IMG/VR virus record: IMGVR_UViG_3300035562_000123
Span: 1-40,071 of that record
Reading direction: 5' to 3' (one strand)
Origin: a virus
Taxonomy: Duplodnaviria; Caudoviricetes
DNA length: 40,071 nt
Shown: positions 478-15,599 of the stretch, one piece after another
Position numbering within the stretch: position 1 is the stretch's first letter
Layout: every line of letters begins with the position of its first letter
Notes under the pieces: model-generated
What the model was told of the DNA's origin: nothing
The model's input: only the letters and a program-made list of their open reading frames with translations
The model's database searches: none
Translations under genes and position numbers: made by a program

Positions 478-1215
478 TTACCAAATCAGGAACTGCGGGC
501 CGAATGTGAACCGCAGATAGAGACAGATCGATTTGTACTCATCGACAGTCAGTAGCCGATTGAACACCAGCACAACCGAAACATGCGCCCAGCCAGTAAA
601 CTGCCCAGCGCTGCGATGGCCACCGATCAGTAGCGTGCCTGATTGCACTTGCCGGCCAGCCCCCAGCGACGAATTAGAGACAATATTTTTTGCGGTCGGG
701 TCATAGAAACCCGATACAGAACGCCCTGGGTTGAATTGACCGGTTCCGATAACAAAATCAGTGCCTGGAATGTTCACGATCGGCGTAATCGCATTTGTCA
801 GCCCTGCTGTTACCCAAGCGTTCGCCACAACTGATGTGTCAGTGAGACGCAGTGAATCTCCGCCGACGCCGTCATAGTTCGACACAACCAGGCCTTGCGC
901 GGCGGAAGCCGCAGTATCTGAGCGCAGTGCTATTGAGATAACACTCATTTCGTTCTGTGACGGAATGCCGGTATCAAAGCAGTTTTGCGCGTTACAGACG
1001 GCATACGGGCCATCGAGCTGCGGACTACCGATTTTCTTCAGTGGCTTGGTTGGATCGGCATAGTTGTAAAGTGCGTCGGCGGTATATTCAGTTGTGAAAT
1101 ACGCACCGAGCAGTCCTAACTTCACAGGAACATCCAGAGCGATAGTTTCGAATTCAGACGCTTTCGGAAATCCTACACCTGGCATGGTCCAATTAATGAT
1201 CTCAGGAAATGGCAT
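478..1215 (-). CDS. Tail-associated beta-rich protein, LamG/concanavalin-like
   Basis: 245 aa; GAGG RBS; C-terminal LLIGG...VLVFNRLLTVDE resembles LamG motif; follows SGNH gene. Confidence 0.6.
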   Translation of the reverse strand: MPFPEIINWTMPGVGFPKASEFETIALDVPVKLGLLGAYFTTEYTADALYNYADPTKPLKKIGSPQLDGPYAVCNAQNCFDTGIPSQNEMSVISIALRSDTAASAAQGLVVSNYDGVGGDSLRLTDTSVVANAWVTAGLTNAITPIVNIPGTDFVIGTGQFNPGRSVSGFYDPTAKNIVSNSSLGAGRQVQSGTLLIGGHRSAGQFTGWAHVSVVLVFNRLLTVDEYKSICLYLRFTFGPQFLIW

Positions 1216-1225
1216 TTTTTACCTC

Positions 1226-3085
1226 TCAAAGGAATTTTTCAACGTTCTGTGTTGCCAGCAGTTGTGCACCGACGTCGTTTAGATGGAGGTTGTTAAACCA
1301 AAGACCAGCAGCATCACCATCAGCCCAATTTTTAGGGAACACGTCATATCCGCTATAGAACTCGGCATTTTTCTGGACTGCTAGGCTCCTGATTGCATCG
1401 TTAAACACCGACATATTTGTGGCGCCGGTTGCATTTGGCACGGGGGGTGAAATAAGAATGATGCCCATATTTGGATTAACAGACCGATATGCATCAATCA
1501 GATTGCTGTACCCCGTATAAAATGCGTTTACATCTTCGCTAAGACGGTAGTCATTAACCCCGATGATGATAATTGCGACGTCCGGGTTGATATATTCAAC
1601 AAAATGCGGAATGTGTGGCAGAACATAACTATACATCGGCGTTGTCATGCCGCCATTGCCGCATTTGTATAGCGTGGCGCCAGTAGGTTTATCAGCATTC
1701 AATCCGTAGATGGCCACGGTGCCAGTGTTCCCATTTGTGTTGATGCGCAGTGAGTGCTCTCCGTCCGCAAGCCCGGTAATATCGATGAATTTTTTCGTTT
1801 TCGTATTACCACCCACAACAGCTACCCAGTCCCCAGTCCCGTCGACTCGGTAATTAAACGCACCATCACCGTCATAATAATTGATACGCAGCGTATTGCA
1901 GTTAGTCCCATTAATTTGCAGGGTCGCGAACTGATTTGCAGACGTCAGTGAGAACCCATCATGCGAACAACCAATATCTGAATTTGGCGCACTACCGTTC
2001 GACGCATCATAAACAGTGAAACCGTTGTGAACGATAGAAACATTATTCAGGCAATTGTTCGTTTCCGTACCGCCGTCAATGTTAAATGAAATCCACCCAT
2101 CTCCGCCGCGCCCATATTTGAAATAAATCAAATTTGCGATAGCCTGTGAAATCGCTTTCCACTCCATCCACGAGTCGCCGACAGTGATAATTCTCAGATT
2201 TTGATTACTGCCAATATCATGCTTTGCCACTTTAGCTCGGTATGGCCATAGCGAGCTGCCATCAGTAAAACTCATTATCGCAGAACCTTTAAGCGTGTCC
2301 TTATGAATACCTTTACCAAAAATAAGACCGTCTTTGATAGCAATTGGCACGTTACCAGCCAAGTCTTGAGCGATAATAAAATCGCTGAGGTTACGCATGG
2401 GCTTCAACACGTTTTGCGGTATCCTTAATTTTTTAGCGATAGATTTAACTAGTCTATTACCAGCCCCAAACGCATCAAATCGGCCGAATTCGAATGATGT
2501 CAGTACATTGCCCGACATATCCTGCGCCGTAGAAAAGTGCTCGCGGCTTTGTGCAATGCGCTTCGTTTTGTTCTCTAGCGCACCAACGCGGCGCAATGCC
2601 TGCATTACGCGGCGCGATACTGACGTTACAAACCGCTCACTGGCCTCCGAGTTAATAAATTCAGCAACTCCCGCCGCATTTTTGTAGTAATTGAAAATGA
2701 CTGTTACACCGCCGCCGTCAGGAATAGCAACACGGAACATTTTCCCGTCTGGTGTCCCGGCTATGCCCGCAATCGTTCCGTCTGGATCGGTAGGTGTTGT
2801 GTAGTAGGTATTGGCATCTGCGATGTTCTGGGCGTTTTCTGCGGCCGCCTCTGCCTTAGTAGCGGCGTCTGTCGAGATGACTGCATTCTCAGCCACGCCG
2901 TGGGCGGCTTCTACTGCGCCAAGTTCAGCCTGCGAAGCCTTCGCTGCAGAATTGGCCGCCGAAATTGCGCTACCTTGTGCCGCCTGGGCGTATGCATCAC
3001 CTGCTGATGCGCCGGCGGTTCGGCGCTGACCAAGGGTAACAGAAACCCCTACCACGTCAGTGACTGGCAAACCATTATTTGACAT
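1226..3085 (-). CDS. SGNH/GDSL hydrolase tail spike or appendage (putative polysaccharide deacetylase)
   Basis: 619 aa; SGNH blocks VGDSW, CGNGG, GVND, NNLH; Ala-rich coiled stalk; DPDGTIAGIAGT motif recalled from enterobacterial prophage fibres. Confidence 0.8.
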   Translation of the reverse strand: MSNNGLPVTDVVGVSVTLGQRRTAGASAGDAYAQAAQGSAISAANSAAKASQAELGAVEAAHGVAENAVISTDAATKAEAAAENAQNIADANTYYTTPTDPDGTIAGIAGTPDGKMFRVAIPDGGGVTVIFNYYKNAAGVAEFINSEASERFVTSVSRRVMQALRRVGALENKTKRIAQSREHFSTAQDMSGNVLTSFEFGRFDAFGAGNRLVKSIAKKLRIPQNVLKPMRNLSDFIIAQDLAGNVPIAIKDGLIFGKGIHKDTLKGSAIMSFTDGSSLWPYRAKVAKHDIGSNQNLRIITVGDSWMEWKAISQAIANLIYFKYGRGGDGWISFNIDGGTETNNCLNNVSIVHNGFTVYDASNGSAPNSDIGCSHDGFSLTSANQFATLQINGTNCNTLRINYYDGDGAFNYRVDGTGDWVAVVGGNTKTKKFIDITGLADGEHSLRINTNGNTGTVAIYGLNADKPTGATLYKCGNGGMTTPMYSYVLPHIPHFVEYINPDVAIIIIGVNDYRLSEDVNAFYTGYSNLIDAYRSVNPNMGIILISPPVPNATGATNMSVFNDAIRSLAVQKNAEFYSGYDVFPKNWADGDAAGLWFNNLHLNDVGAQLLATQNVEKFL

Positions 3086-3111
3086 GATTTTATTCTCTGA
3101 ATAGTGCGAAG

Positions 3112-4023
3112 TTAATACCCAGTGGCTTCCCAGTATGCTGATAATTCGTTAGCGTTCATCCATACAAAGAACCCTGAATTATTGGCGCCTTGGGCAATAA
3201 TATTGTCAGTAGAACCACCGTTTTCACTAACCTGTCTTAATGTCAACTTGATGCATAGTAATTTATTGGGGAATGGAATTGGAAAGGAAACGGGATTTGA
3301 GTTGGCCGAACGATTTACTATTCCTCCCTGCACGATTTTCCCTGCAGAATCACGCGACCACCAATTATCGCCATCGACATGCAGTTCATCCGGTCGATTG
3401 TTTGGGCTGTAAACCCGTTGGCCCGACTCGAAAATTGGAACTCCATTAGTTGTGTAAAAATTCCCTGCGGCATCCACGCCAAAACCGCGACCACTATCAC
3501 TTCGGCTTACAGCGAGTGAACCATCATCATAAGCTGCCACTATGCCGGTTTGATGCCCATCTGCATGACGAAAAACCACCACGCCACCTTGCGTGCCAAC
3601 GTCACCAAGGGTATTTATAGGCCCGGTGATTGTCCCCCCGGTAATTGGCAGGGCGCCCACGTCACCAGAGGATAGCGCAATGTCACCGGAGAGCGATTTA
3701 CCGTTAACTTTCTGAGTCTTTAAAACATATCGCCCATCGACTGAGCTACCGGTCAAATATTGATAAATTGCTTTCTCAAAAGACAGCTTCAGTTTATTTA
3801 AATCACCATCATCGATTACATCATCACCAGACTGCTCAGCAATAAAGTTACCTAAAACAGCAGACATTACCGATGCTTGACGCCATGTTTTATTAAGCTG
3901 CTCGCTTTTCGCTATACCTGCCGTATACCCAGCTCCGACAGCTGGAAGCGCTTCATATTCTTCTTGGGTCAAAACGTTTGCATATTCACCGATGGCAAAC
4001 GGTTTAAATTCATTCTTTGCCAT
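3112..4023 (-). CDS. Tail fibre protein
   Basis: 303 aa; MAKNEFKPFA N-terminus, VNGKSLSGDI repeat, C-terminal FPIPFPN motif; follows baseplate genes. Confidence 0.85.
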   Translation of the reverse strand: MAKNEFKPFAIGEYANVLTQEEYEALPAVGAGYTAGIAKSEQLNKTWRQASVMSAVLGNFIAEQSGDDVIDDGDLNKLKLSFEKAIYQYLTGSSVDGRYVLKTQKVNGKSLSGDIALSSGDVGALPITGGTITGPINTLGDVGTQGGVVVFRHADGHQTGIVAAYDDGSLAVSRSDSGRGFGVDAAGNFYTTNGVPIFESGQRVYSPNNRPDELHVDGDNWWSRDSAGKIVQGGIVNRSANSNPVSFPIPFPNKLLCIKLTLRQVSENGGSTDNIIAQGANNSGFFVWMNANELSAYWEATGY

Positions 4024-4602: not shown

Positions 4603-5789
4603 GCCACCGTGATAATTGCGATATTCTCCGGCGAACAGGTCGCAGACTCGTTAAAAAGAATCGGGATATTGGCTTCATTCATCGCGACCGCGTCTTTGCC
4701 GATACTTACCGTCATAAGGTCATAGGTTTTACCGCTGTCAGCGTTGCCCAGCGTGGCAGGAACGTAGAGCCGCGAAAAATAGACTGTGTCGCCGATGTAA
4801 AGCGTGTTGATGTAGTCAGACACGGCTTTTTTTATGTCTTCACCGATGTCGCTGGTGTAGCCAGGAAGCACCTTAATTTTGATAGCCGCGTAAATCGGGA
4901 CTTTGGTCGGCCGGAAAAAATGGATCGGCTTGTCTGTGCCATAGGCATCTTTGACGATCACCGTCGTAGTGCCAAACGTCGGCGCGCCAGGTGATTTTTT
5001 TATCGCGATGATCCTGGCGATCTCTTCTGCATCGCCGCCGTCTACCACCATCGAAACCGCATGCGCCGGCACGCCGTTGATGTCGGTTTCAGAAGTGTCG
5101 TTGTCGTAGCCCTTATAGCGCGTCACGCCGGTGATATTGGCAATAGCGCCTATCAGGCCTTCCATGACAGTTCGGGACGGTAGCGCGACGCTGAGCGCCT
5201 GGCGCTGGCGGAGCTCTGCGTCAGTTTCTACCGGCTTGCCGGCGGTGGCCGCTTCAGGGTTCGTGACGGATTGCCAGCCGCGCGTAGGTGTAGCGATTTG
5301 CGAAACATCGCCAGGCAGCGCGGTGATGGCGCCTGCCTTCTGCGCCGTCGCGGTTACCACCGCCTGGCCGTGAATATCGAGCTCCACCTCTACCGGTAAA
5401 TCCCAGAGGTTCCCGGCGCTGTCGCGCACTGAGGCATTTCTGATGACAATGCCAACCTGGCCGATCAGCCTCACGTCAACCGTGGAATTTGACGGCGCCT
5501 TGCGGCTGATGCCGTTGATTTTGACGTTACTCGCCAGCCCCACGCCGGTGCCGGTCGCCGGGCTAAATGCGTTCCAGGTAGAAATCGCCGCATTGTTGCC
5601 GCCGTGCATCGCGTAGGCGATCAGCGACAACAGCACGCCGTCTTTGCTGTCTGGTTCGATGTAGATGTCATCGCCATAGATGCCGCGAAAAATCGTCTGC
5701 CACCCGGTGAGGATGGTCTGGAATTCAGGCGCGCTCATCCCTGCCGCCGTTATTTTTGGAAGCATCGAATCGATAATGTCTTCATACAT
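4599..5789 (-). CDS. Baseplate J/gp47-like wedge protein
   Basis: 396 aa; SPATGTG and ETDAELRQR motifs; synteny. Confidence 0.9.
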   Translation of the reverse strand: MYEDIIDSMLPKITAAGMSAPEFQTILTGWQTIFRGIYGDDIYIEPDSKDGVLLSLIAYAMHGGNNAAISTWNAFSPATGTGVGLASNVKINGISRKAPSNSTVDVRLIGQVGIVIRNASVRDSAGNLWDLPVEVELDIHGQAVVTATAQKAGAITALPGDVSQIATPTRGWQSVTNPEAATAGKPVETDAELRQRQALSVALPSRTVMEGLIGAIANITGVTRYKGYDNDTSETDINGVPAHAVSMVVDGGDAEEIARIIAIKKSPGAPTFGTTTVIVKDAYGTDKPIHFFRPTKVPIYAAIKIKVLPGYTSDIGEDIKKAVSDYINTLYIGDTVYFSRLYVPATLGNADSGKTYDLMTVSIGKDAVAMNEANIPILFNESATCSPENIAIITVA

Positions 5790-6132
5790 AGGTTGTTACC
5801 GAGGTTTGGCCGAAGGCGGTGTTTAGCGTGGCGGTGATCAGGAGGTCGCGCGTATCAACATCGCGCTGGCTCTGGTACTCGACGATCTCGGTCACGTTCG
5901 GCGTGCCGAGGATGCGCTCGCGGATCACGATGTCATAGAGGCCCGACGTGTATTTGCCGAGTATCTGCGTCCAGTCGGTGCCGGCGGAGGTATCGAGGAA
6001 CCACTCGCCCTTTCGCAGCTGCAGGCGGCTGATCACCGCCATGCCCACAGCCTCGGGCGTGTTAATGAAGAAATCACCCTCGCCGCGCCCGAAACTATAA
6101 TCGCCGTTCTTGTCTTCTTTCCGGTATCTCAC
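5782..6132 (-). CDS. Baseplate wedge/sheath initiator, Mu gp46 or gp25-like
   Basis: 116 aa; GEWFLDT..GT.W motif; between spike and J. Confidence 0.8.
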   Translation of the reverse strand: MRYRKEDKNGDYSFGRGEGDFFINTPEAVGMAVISRLQLRKGEWFLDTSAGTDWTQILGKYTSGLYDIVIRERILGTPNVTEIVEYQSQRDVDTRDLLITATLNTAFGQTSVTTYV

Positions 6133-6940: not shown

Positions 6941-7318
6941 TCATTTAGATGATATGCGCCTAAAGAAATTTTTTGCCGTTTCTATAGACTCTATTGCAAC
7001 ACTTTCGCCAATTGATGATTCACTTATGCGATAGTCAGACTCATTTCGTGCTTGCCGCATTTGTCTCAATTCATAACCCAATATCTTTAACCTCGCAGGA
7101 GACAATTCCTCCCTAGGAACCCCTAAATCACCACGCATATACTTAATCAAGTTTGAGTGATGATCCCTAGTGCATGAAGGGATATTTTTTAACTCCTCCT
7201 GTGCTTTGTGATACATTGAGTAGTAAGCACGAGATATCGTATTCCTATAGCCAACTTCACATGCAAAGTTCAAGCAATGCTGACTAGAATCAAGAAAGTC
7301 ATCACTTTTTATAGTCAT
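6941..7318 (-). CDS. HEPN-domain protein (SRAYY...RxxxDY type)
   Basis: YRNTISRAYYSMYH and RQARNESDY motifs; likely start MTIKS at 7318 (ORF track extends to 7363); AT-rich. Confidence 0.8.
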   Translation of the reverse strand: MTIKSDDFLDSSQHCLNFACEVGYRNTISRAYYSMYHKAQEELKNIPSCTRDHHSNLIKYMRGDLGVPREELSPARLKILGYELRQMRQARNESDYRISESSIGESVAIESIETAKNFFRRISSK

Positions 7319-8075
7319 AAATACTATCTTTTCCTCCATCTCTTTTTGAGGTGTACCTAGCAATCATTTCGCAACTATCCATAATTTCCATAGCACAGAC
7401 CCTTTCAGCCAACTCAATGTTTAACTTAACTATTTCACTTGGGTCAATATTGGGTAATTGCACAAGATAATCACCACCAAAATCAGCATGAATAGAAACA
7501 TTTTCAGGGGTTATTTTATGCTCAGATAAAATCTCATGAGTAACCAGTCCAAGGTTCTGCAGTTGCTCCGGCGAACAAACATTAGAGCTATATACATTAT
7601 TCAAAGTTGAAACGAGCTCATCTCTATAAGATACGGAAGCTTGAATATCATCTTCGCGTGAAAACATAGATGCGTGCTTTGATAAATGCTTCTCAACTAA
7701 ATCAATGTAACCAAGACGGTATGCTTCCGTCCCTGCTAATATACTAAAATCCTTCACGTAAAAATTATCAGAGAAATCGAATATATACTCCCTCAACTCA
7801 TTAAAGTAAAACTTTCTATAAATGAAAGCAATGAAATTTTGTGCTACGGTAAAATTCCCATAATCTAAGTTTTTTATGAAATGAGCTCTAGCTAAGTCAT
7901 CCTCATCATTAAGTGCATAAGCAAAACCAACAGCACTTACATCATTCGGATCTGAGCTATGCAGAAATTTACTTATTACAGCATGATATGTAAACTCATC
8001 AATCCTTTCATTTTCATGCAACATTTTTCCAAATCGATTAATAAATTCACTCGAGGCTCTCGCAGGCTGTGCCAT
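7302..8075 (-). CDS. Hypothetical partner of HEPN protein (helical/TPR-like N-terminus, alpha/beta C-terminus)
   Basis: 257 aa; AGGGG RBS; AT-rich; 17-nt overlap with HEPN gene. Confidence 0.8.
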   Translation of the reverse strand: MAQPARASSEFINRFGKMLHENERIDEFTYHAVISKFLHSSDPNDVSAVGFAYALNDEDDLARAHFIKNLDYGNFTVAQNFIAFIYRKFYFNELREYIFDFSDNFYVKDFSILAGTEAYRLGYIDLVEKHLSKHASMFSREDDIQASVSYRDELVSTLNNVYSSNVCSPEQLQNLGLVTHEILSEHKITPENVSIHADFGGDYLVQLPNIDPSEIVKLNIELAERVCAMEIMDSCEMIARYTSKRDGGKDSIYDYKK

Positions 8076-8105
8076 ATATCCCCTAAATATTACTTCATTT
8101 CATAT

Positions 8106-8134
8106 ATCCTAGCGTCTAAAAACACGAGTGTAAA
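8106..8134 (-). promoter_or_regulatory. Sigma70 promoter of HEPN moron
   Basis: Minus strand TTTACA-17 nt-TAGGAT, about 30 nt upstream of the ATG at 8075. Confidence 0.7.
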
Positions 8135-8154
8135 ACTTTGTGTCTCTGAAAATC

Positions 8155-8508
8155 CTAGTTTTGTCTATAACCAACTTTCACACAATCATAGGTCGCATAC
8201 TGGCGCGGCGCGTCGATGCTAGCCTGAAGCAGTTGAACGTTAAGAAAACGCTTCGTGCCCCCACGCTTCACGTACTCCATACCTAACCATTTCCCCGGCT
8301 GGTTCGTTGCGACGCGCCACTCCATTTTGACATTGTCGTAATCTGGTGGATTTGTCAGGTATGTAACTTTCTGGGTTTCTGGCCGCACTCCATTTATGTG
8401 CATGAATCCATCATTGCTCGGGGTTAAAAGATAATCTCCACACCGTACGTCTGCAGTAGCGTGCATTGAAAATGAAGCGGCAAGTAAACAAAAAATTATC
8501 CTTTTCAT
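8155..8508 (-). CDS. Exported small protein with Sec signal peptide
   Basis: 117 aa; MKRIIFCLLAASFSMHATA-D signal peptide; one Cys near each end of the mature chain. Confidence 0.8.
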   Translation of the reverse strand: MKRIIFCLLAASFSMHATADVRCGDYLLTPSNDGFMHINGVRPETQKVTYLTNPPDYDNVKMEWRVATNQPGKWLGMEYVKRGGTKRFLNVQLLQASIDAPRQYATYDCVKVGYRQN

Positions 8509-13565: not shown

Positions 13566-15047
13566 TTAGCGGTTAACGTTGATGATGACGTCGCCGAAGT
13601 GCACGGCGCCGGCCAGTTTGATTGCCACCTGCATCACCGGGGCTTTGCGGGCTTCGCGCTCCGCTTGCGCCTGCTGTGCAATCGGCGGGGAATAGACGTA
13701 ATACCCCTTTGTCAGCGTTTCGCCGGTATTCAGCGCGCCGAAACCGTCGCCACTCCACACGCCAGGCGCGATCAGGCCGTTTTCAGCCCCCTGAGCCAGC
13801 GATGCTTCGACGTTGGTCAGCAGATCGGTAATGCCCTCATCGGTCTGAGGAACCTTTGTCGAACTGGTATAGAGGCGGTTGTAGTAGTTGGTCTGAACGT
13901 AGTTCTGTAGCCAGTCCAGGCCGTGTCGCTCGTCAAAGAAATCAGCGTTACACATCACGCCTTCTTGCAGGATTGCCGTGTCGTTGTCGTAATTGACGAA
14001 CACGTTGCAGTTTTTCTGCTGCAGGGTCAGCGCCTGGGTTTGTGTCAGCGTTTCCGCGACGATCCCCGGCTCTTGCTTAAATTTGATGGTGATCGTGGTG
14101 CGCCAGCCGGCGAAATTGACCGTAAAGGCACGGCCCAGAATCGACACCGCGGCGTAAGGGCTCTGGCTGGAATACTGGACACAGGTTGTACCGAACGCCG
14201 CGGCTTTCAGCCGGCTGGCAATGTCGGTGTTGTTGTCCGCATCGAGCACGGCGGTATTTTGCGTGGTGTGGGCGTAAATGCGGGAAACGTCATCGGATTG
14301 GATCAGGCCAGCAACGGCGAGCACTTCATCATCAGAAATCGTCTCAGCGATATACAGGCCATACCATTTCGACGACAGGTCGATAAATTTCGCGACGCAT
14401 TCGGCGATGCTTTCCGCCGGCTGCCGGGCGATAATTTTCGCGCCGGTGCCTTCAAGAATACCCATCAACGCGGAAATATCTGTTCCCGTAGCGTTTGGCG
14501 TAGCAAAGCCAACTGCGGACGTCTCGCCTGTGGTTTTCGAGGTCACCACAAACCGCGCGTTGTTCGCATCCCAGACGACGTTCGCCGTGGTCAGCTTTTC
14601 CGCTACGCGCGCAGCGACGCCGTTCAGATTGTTTTCTGCCGACAGGTCAACTCCGGAGACCGTTTTTACCGTCCCATCGACGCTGATTTTCATTGCGCCA
14701 TCGGTCACGGTTGTGAAATTGGTCATCGCCTGTTGCGCAGTATTCAGGATTGCACCGCGCAGCGCGGCGGCAGTGTCCACTTTCACCCAGCGGCCAACGT
14801 ACAGATCGATCGGCTGCGGGCGCTGCCAGTAGTAAACCTGAGCGGCTAACGCCTCAGGCGCCTGGATGCCGAAGTCAGATTGCACGCCGGTAATGCCGGA
14901 ATAAGCGCGCATCCGCTCACTGGCGTCTATCACCGGTGAAGCGCCGATAATCAGCAACGAACCAAAGTTTCGAGCCTGCGCCGCGCGCAAGGCCATATTA
15001 ATCGAGACGCCGACGACGTTTCGAACAGGTAACCCCTGCTGTGCCAT
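13566..15047 (-). CDS. Contractile tail sheath protein, DUF3383-like
   Basis: 493 aa; [32 protein letters not shown] motifs. Confidence 0.9.
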
Positions 15048-15050
15048 AAA

Positions 15051-15599
15051 TTATTCTCCGAAGAATTTTACCGTTGCCTCTGCGATCGGCTTGATGCCGT
15101 ACTCGCGGACAACCTTGCGGCGCAGGCGGACGGTAATGTCATACCGGCGCACCCACTGGTTGTTGATGAGTTCAGGGAAAGGAATGATGTCGCCGATGCT
15201 GCCGAGCGACAGACCGACGGCGATCAGCTGATCGTTGTTTTGTGACAGGGTTAAACCATCACGGAAAATTGACGCTATACGCTGGCTATGCGGCCCATAG
15301 AACGACGCCAGGCACTCGGTCACCTCGTGGCGCCACAGTTCCGCGCTGTCGTCGCTCTGCCGCGTAAACGCTGGATTATCATCACCGATAAAGCCGGAGA
15401 TCCCCACGGCCGACCAATCCACATCAGGCGGCATCAATGGTGGCTGTGTGGGTGTCCAGCGCGGCCGCACGTTGCCCGGCGGCAGCCCTGTTATACCGAG
15501 CACCCAACGATTTAGCGCACGTTCGAGCGCCTCATCATAATCAGGGCCGGGCGAAATTGGCGTCAGGTAACCGGCCTGCGTGCTGGTGTTATTGCTCAA
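15051..15599 (-). CDS. Neck / tail terminator protein
   Basis: Likely TTG start at 15599 after GGAGGG (ORF track starts at 15656); precedes sheath. Confidence 0.75.
   Translation of the reverse strand: MSNNTSTQAGYLTPISPGPDYDEALERALNRWVLGITGLPPGNVRPRWTPTQPPLMPPDVDWSAVGISGFIGDDNPAFTRQSDDSAELWRHEVTECLASFYGPHSQRIASIFRDGLTLSQNNDQLIAVGLSLGSIGDIIPFPELINNQWVRRYDITVRLRRKVVREYGIKPIAEATVKFFGE

Follow-up and report, generated by a model that had tools for sequence, protein, structure and literature searches.

Genes and features of the window

The stretch of DNA analysed here, referred to as the window (40,071 nucleotides), represents a complete-looking temperate myophage with integrase, lysis and head genes and a tail module of the XM1/Pam3/E217 type on the minus strand. 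Among named relatives, a prophage of Serratia sp. PL17 is the closest. The features relevant to the present analysis are compiled in Table 1. Judging from gene position and by analogy to solved relatives, the wedge subunit phrog_120 may be the sheath initiator that accepts the arms of the first ring, and the 245-aa phrog_4390 protein is possibly a chaperone or a binding partner. Many loci have a gene of similar size after the spike gene, and a weak counterpart occurs in podophage KYP. A variable slot of the window (6941-8508, minus strand), flanked by the genes for the baseplate hub and spike, contains three uncharacterised genes (phrog_5176, phrog_17809 and phrog_3443).

Table 1. Position of the spike, sheath and neighboring tail features in the window.
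Feature	Position	Strand	Remarks
SGNH spike protein, whole gene	1226-3085	-	after short tail fibre gene
Sheath-arm copy, spike residues 1-21	3023..3085	-	core G5-S15 = 3041-3073
Spike RBS region	3086..3099	-	worn terminator-stop/sheath-start junction; GAGAATAA common to 15048-15060
Ala-rich helical module and stalk, spike residues 22-90	2816..3022	-	residues 21-50 conserved alongside arm
Small domain, spike residues ~91-150	2636..2815	-	also in many prophage fibre/spike proteins with other anchors
SGNH hydrolase domain, beta-sandwich insert, Ape1-like fold, residues ~290-619	1226..2218	-
245-aa protein (phrog_4390, no Pfam)	478..1215	-	after spike; travels with cargo
Short baseplate-type tail fibre (PF21882 tip)	3112..4023	-	gene upstream of spike
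Small baseplate wedge subunit (phrog_120)	5782..6132	-	putative sheath initiator
DUF3383 tail sheath (XM1 gp6 / Pam3 / E217 gp31 family)	13566..15047	-	N-terminal arm 14985-15047
Tail terminator (PF23961)	15051..15596	-	last codons = sheath RBS

By family profile (PF13472, E 1.9e-13) and modeled fold, the best match of which is the O-acetylesterase Ape1 (E 2.1e-19), the cargo of the spike is an SGNH/GDSL hydrolase and a putative esterase. The motifs GDSW (residue 303), GNGG (476) and GVND (509), which we take to be SGNH blocks I, II and III with the residues Ser, Gly and Asn, are followed by block V at residues 598-601 (window positions 1283-1294, minus strand), which reads NNLH and not DxxH, with His601 present. 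Relatives carry DGLH or DSYH at this site, and NNLH is shared by one related protein (L102). Two SGNH proteins from Klebsiella prophages are reported to be esterases (PMC13123978).

Resemblance of the spike N-terminus to the sheath arm

The initial annotation had noted that the spike and the sheath proteins start alike, and both N-termini, re-read from the sequence, are as it gave them. Among the first 21 residues 11 are identical, and all nine identities within the core (G5-S15) are specified by different codons, such that only M1 and R21 share theirs. The arm is coded by 3023-3085, a slightly wider range than the 3030-3085 given there. The arm pair has an ungapped BLOSUM62 score of 52, compared to 22 for the runner-up among 666 N-terminus pairs from 37 window ORFs. 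When the sheath arm was shuffled 2000 times and compared to every 20-mer of the other ORFs, no shuffle came to 52 (maximum 41), which rules out a chance resemblance. When 17 spike starts were compared with 57 sheaths by HHalign, columns 1-25 aligned with a probability of 91.6% (E 8.1e-7). Between the spike arm and the sheath arm of the window, pS amounts to 13.7/14.7 = 0.93 and pN to 8.3/36.3 = 0.23. Together with the codon differences these values rule out a recent duplication and bear out the proposed selection at the protein level.

Among 32 distinct spike 5' sequences, in which the motif is indeed kept, G5, L6, P7, L18 and R21 are unchanged throughout, each being specified by two to five codons, while V8, V11 and V12 are each kept in 31, as many as have V or T at position 14. 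All of 54 sheath starts have P7 and V14, with G5 and L6 retained in 53. In these alignments, the conserved positions of the spike arm are the conserved positions of the sheath arm. The spike arm has the sheath-arm residues and the alternating hydrophobic pattern, as for a donor of strand 4 (see below). A profile built from spikes only gave five strong spike matches and 11 weak matches in 401 genomes; nine of the weak ones are N-termini of DUF3383 sheaths and the other two contain stops. A 51-nt tree comprising 23 arms from spikes and 44 from sheaths left the two groups unseparated and was dropped as uninformative. Searching the arm profile against the PDB gave no real match, and in the ESM Atlas spike residues 1-160 fell into unnamed clusters only. 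AlphaFold monomers have sheath residues 1-28 and 479-493 disordered and spike residues 1-112 at pLDDT <50, and disorder of the arms in such monomer models says nothing about docking.

Origin and decay of the arm

The ribosome-binding site of the sheath gene is encoded in the last codons of the terminator gene. Of 27 distinct spike starts, 8 have TCGGAGAA, the sequence of this terminator end and sheath RBS, upstream of them, compared to none of 188 other starts, which were called mechanically with sheath starts excluded. The arm looks like an old duplication of the junction between terminator stop and sheath start and not like a product of convergence, and this junction would have been duplicated long ago in front of a receptor-binding gene. 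The resemblance that the initial annotation had described as a mimic of the sheath arm stands, but with TCGGAGAA kept upstream of 8/27 spikes it is better taken as an old copy made by duplication.

A single natural control for the pairing of arm and sheath is provided by the complete provirus G805 (locus L110). Here the 5' DNA of the arm is present (77/90 nt) with a stop after 22 codons, the baseplate genes are of the Mu type, the sheath belongs to PF04984 and has an unrelated N-terminus, DUF3383 is absent and the spike has a different N-terminus. In terms of gene content, this is a Mu-like prophage with another sheath type in which the arm is decayed and a different anchor is in its place. 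The start of its spike is similar to an anchor family of non-Serratia phages described below. Five chromosomal relics (L129, L130, L133-L135) were left out as controls, as they reflect general prophage decay.

Distribution of the arm and diversity of its cargos

Of 20 loci retrieved via the baseplate J protein, 17 have the motif on both sheath and spike and three distant ones lack it. A search with residues 1-60 yielded 68 proteins among 257 candidates, and those with names stem from Serratia bar one labelled Klebsiella pneumoniae. By scoring the sheath arm of each locus against its other ORFs, a second subfamily was detected (L040, L053, L054, L057, L070 and L076) that is 34-40% identical over the first 50 residues. 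A 50-position profile, run against 1.84 billion representatives, gave 46 matches including a third subfamily; in 43 of these the match begins the protein, in two an upstream extension precedes it, and one (P0229) was dropped as a repeat artefact. Named members are present in seven of ten clusters looked up and all are Serratia. As far as these searches reach, the arm heads three diverged spike or fibre subfamilies that are named almost only from Serratia. Besides the window, a DUF3383 sheath shares a record with an arm-bearing spike of at least 400 aa in 26 cases, many of them near-identical (L001-L017 minus the contig-cut L011, the six loci of the second subfamily, L132 and G802-G804).

The cargos behind the arm comprise SGNH, SASA, GH28, GH43, polysaccharide deacetylase, Tail_spike_N, S74 and fibre tips, and nine of 31 arm-bearing proteins scanned were without any Pfam match. 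L102 carries the cargo of the window (90% identical over 530 residues) under an arm of the second subfamily, the two arms being 36% identical. Residues 104-607 of the window protein are 30% identical to the fibre of podophage KYP, the N-terminus of which is the T7 anchor PF03906. The earlier suggestion that the arm fronts swappable enzymes is well founded in these unrelated cargos. As is the case for receptor-binding proteins of virions, the spike appears to combine an N-terminal anchor with a swappable cargo and adjoins fibre genes. Comparison across these families shows that the arm is homologous to the sheath arm, kept at the protein level and fused to many cargos, and that it occupies the place where other phages carry a virion anchor.

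The initial annotation had also proposed to look for the motif on non-sheath proteins of DUF3383 phages. It was found in Serratia-type prophages but not elsewhere among the DUF3383 phages covered: no independent arm copies were found in 44 loci of other DUF3383 lineages (best score 33), in 35 further DUF3383 loci whose downstream sequence spans at least 6.4 kb (best 29) or in Mulock, Magia and Ab105-1phi (best 30). Many of the loci end shortly past the fibre gene, so that the negative result applies to the sequence covered. No isolated phage among 50,697 records has the spike N-terminus. Second receptor-binding proteins of other DUF3383 phages (L065, L067, L097, L098 and Mulock) have an unrelated N-terminus. 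A different N-terminal anchor family, found in the gene slot of the spike in non-Serratia DUF3383 phages (L065, L067, L097, L098 and L201:10994-14821), has starts such as MALYKTGNPVPSS and MPFYLTRDPVPS.

Sheath, terminator and the strand slots of the top ring

The window sheath matches PF11863 (E 1.3e-144) and XM1 gp6 (E 2.5e-52). XM1 gp6 also aligns from residue 3 (E 4.8e-82) and Pam3 over LPVRNVV, and by sequence the window sheath is homologous to solved DUF3383 sheaths, N-arm included. The two-stranded sheet of a sheath subunit is completed by the C-arm (strand 3) and the N-arm (strand 4) from the ring above (PMC10329688). In XM1, the N-arm and the C-arm of a neighbor are described to augment the C-terminal domain in the lower ring and the C-terminus of the terminator to augment the top ring (PMC10457771). 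In the top ring of such homologues a one-strand terminator occupies just slot 3. At the E217 gateway the sheet is three-stranded, and the legend of Fig. 4 in PMC10329688 assigns residues 6-12, the N-terminal arm, to strand 4; labels for strand 3 differ between running text and legend in that report, and the legend and residue numbers are followed here.

Terminators generally give one strand, as stated for phiTE, whose own terminator also replaces S4, the N-terminal strand (PMC11972413). In phi92, a terminator hairpin occupies both slots and the initiator accepts the arms of the first ring (PMC13450770), and for XM1 the T4 paper gives a terminator of 13 residues forming one strand (PMC12929629). 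The window terminator ends in one short predicted strand (ATVKFFGE) and aligns with that of Pam3 through the last residue (E 6.5e-4), XM1 gp5 reaching only E 0.24. Its C-terminus is as short as those of Pam3 and XM1, and the vacant slot itself is shown in homologues only. A one-strand terminator in conjunction with the solved relatives leads to a predicted lone unfilled N-arm site at the neck-proximal ring, six per tail. The vacancy originally proposed for a terminal ring is in agreement with the neck-proximal ring in E217 and XM1 as described but not with the baseplate end, where the initiator accepts arms.

Proposed docking of the spike and alternative explanations

By analogy with these structures, the spike arm probably docks in the empty strand-4 slot of the neck-proximal sheath ring, and this appears the best explanation because E217 and XM1 leave the N-arm strand slot of that ring empty. 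The one-strand terminator would fill only slot 3 of the top ring, leaving six strand-4 slots open in the window phage. After termination the spike arm would add strand 4, the Ala-rich helix would carry the cargo outward from the neck ring and the SGNH domain would remove O-acetyl groups from Serratia surface polysaccharide. Spike residues 23-90 are 40% Ala, and about 70 helical residues correspond to roughly 10 nm, given the rise per residue. A stalk of about 70 residues is short compared to the tail, and an enzyme at the neck would therefore act in side-on contact.

Several observations count against docking. No residue covariation of spike arms with the sheath arms of the same phage was found (scores 32-51), and a single spike arm sequence is paired with sheath arms having G13 or D13. 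L131, a deleted prophage, retains an intact arm-bearing spike, its genome being without DUF3383 match, and the unrelated N-termini on the second receptor-binding proteins of other DUF3383 phages imply that another route of attachment exists. Furthermore, L032 (4004-6163) encodes an intact 719-aa spike in which the helical module is present and the arm absent; it lies beside baseplate genes of the arm-bearing family on an 8.6-kb contig that stops short of the sheath gene. The last case bears on the alternative that the helix (residues 21-50) is the main anchor, held in a helical bundle with fibre or baseplate, and that the arm is accessory or left over. The helix could be the real anchor as its pairwise pN/pS among spikes (0.49) about equals that of the arm (0.45); the spike gene adjoins a tail fibre gene, and attachment of a tailspike by a helix bundle is described for siphophage Sf11 (PMC12724387). 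Among 190 helix-profile matches in redundant loci and proteins, L032 is, however, the only true arm-less case, and a scan of viral contigs for a second arm-less spike with the helix found none. The main profile search would miss arm-less forms (E 10) and a protein search for arm-less relatives was so insensitive that even the query was unrecovered. A helix anchor also leaves unexplained why the invariant residues of the sheath are kept at saturated synonymous distance, and we regard it as unlikely.

We consider it still less likely that the arm inserts at another sheet of the sheath type, i.e., in a displaced slot between the top two rings, at scattered sites along the sheath or in the baseplate initiator. 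In phiTE, the N-arm of the top ring is pinned to the side, and between rings 1 and 2 the terminator stands in for strand 4 (PMC11972413), and a position at the baseplate would suit an enzyme that needs contact with the cell surface. On the other hand, in the published structures considered, the initiator sheet is already filled by the two arms of the first ring (PMC13450770), and if strand 4 were replaced along the sheath, the connections driving contraction would be severed (PMC10329688, PMC11972413). That the spike gene took over its 5' end from the sheath gene as a mere translation start, with a peptide devoid of a binding role, would fit the upstream junction sequence that came with it and the decayed copies persisting in chromosomes; this is very improbable, given that the residues are kept at a saturated pS with pN at 0.23 and that the invariant ones use up to five codons. 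A role in assembly, by which the arm would cap or stabilise the final ring of the sheath with enzyme display coming second, has a precedent in the terminators of T4, phi92 and phiTE that fill more slots and for which a strengthening of the neck-sheath joint has been proposed (PMC12929629, PMC13450770, PMC11972413). We give it hardly any credence, as the same short terminator occurs without an arm copy in most of the DUF3383 phages examined, and the arm was seen on receptor-binding cargos or truncated frames, not as a free intact gene.

Relation to known systems

The terminators E217 gp29, XM1 gp5, Milano gp18, phi92 gp129 and phiTE TT likewise place non-sheath strands in the sheet of the top ring. 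Phi92 gp129 and phiTE TT also fill strand 4, and the phiTE extension has been described as mimicking sheath interactions (PMC11972413). These strands are, as reported, C-terminal extensions of a hexameric connector, whereas the spike arm is an N-terminal copy of a sheath arm, recognisable by sequence, on a variable receptor-binding protein. A precedent for a neck-mounted spike is the tailspike-like collar spike gp40 of XM1, a phage with a homologous sheath; gp40 is displayed at the neck and binds gp4 and gp5 via an Ig-like domain (PMC10457771) and not via a sheath-arm peptide.

Klebsiella prophages have receptor-binding proteins of the SGNH-esterase type (PMC13123978), which, like G7C gp63.1, represent the same kind of cargo as that of the window spike, and the main text of that report does not contain the word 'sheath'. 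Klebsiella phage fibres are 28-36% identical to the window cargo over most of its length, and since these matches start at residue ~104 or later the anchor differs. Modular anchors such as the N-terminal domain of T7 gp17 (PF03906) likewise stay constant and bind the virion while the enzyme at the C-terminus is swapped; in phage KYP, PF03906 is joined to the cargo of the window. Anchors of the T7 type are folded domains, whereas the spike arm comprises 21 residues, is unstructured in the monomer model and, unlike them, is taken from the structural protein that it likely binds. A receptor-binding protein anchored by a copy of a sheath arm was not found in the full-text literature searched, which comprised titles and starts of abstracts, passages from reports such as PMC10491603 and PMC8195476, and few subscription papers. 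Donation of strands to the sheath is known, as are neck spikes; their combination was not found in this literature.

For the attachment of second receptor-binding enzymes of temperate myophages to the particle, docking at the neck predicts that six sites at the neck-proximal sheath ring are occupied via a short peptide and that enzymes modifying capsule or O-antigen reside far from the baseplate. A new attachment site would have arisen from the 5' end of a structural gene copied for an unused socket in the lattice. If the peptide suffices, it would be a minimal display tag for contractile tails. In this respect, we tentatively suggest, with not quite even confidence, that the 21-residue arm might be a self-sufficient strand-4 plug, serving Serratia prophages as neck mount for interchangeable polysaccharide-attacking enzymes and fibres, and that any protein could be mounted likewise wherever a one-strand terminator occurs, be it in a myophage, a tailocin or an injection system.

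Genes accompanying the spikes and variation of the sheath

In the Mu-like provirus, an acyltransferase gene (PF01757) lies on the opposite strand upstream of the decayed arm (L110:8844-12227). Variable genes are frequent between fibre and spike in this group (L076, L130 and L157), some of which are acyltransferase-like by eye. Acyltransferase-like genes near spikes suggest exclusion by surface acetylation paired with an esterase. In L129, L130, L133 and L135 (G666, G574, G774 and G786), remnants are present, apparently at one site near a ferritin-like gene, in which acyltransferase-like genes are kept and the spike is decayed, and L131 lies at a similar site. Across L042-L101, DUF3383 sheaths of ~490 aa or ~381 aa occur that differ in an internal domain and have the same arm.
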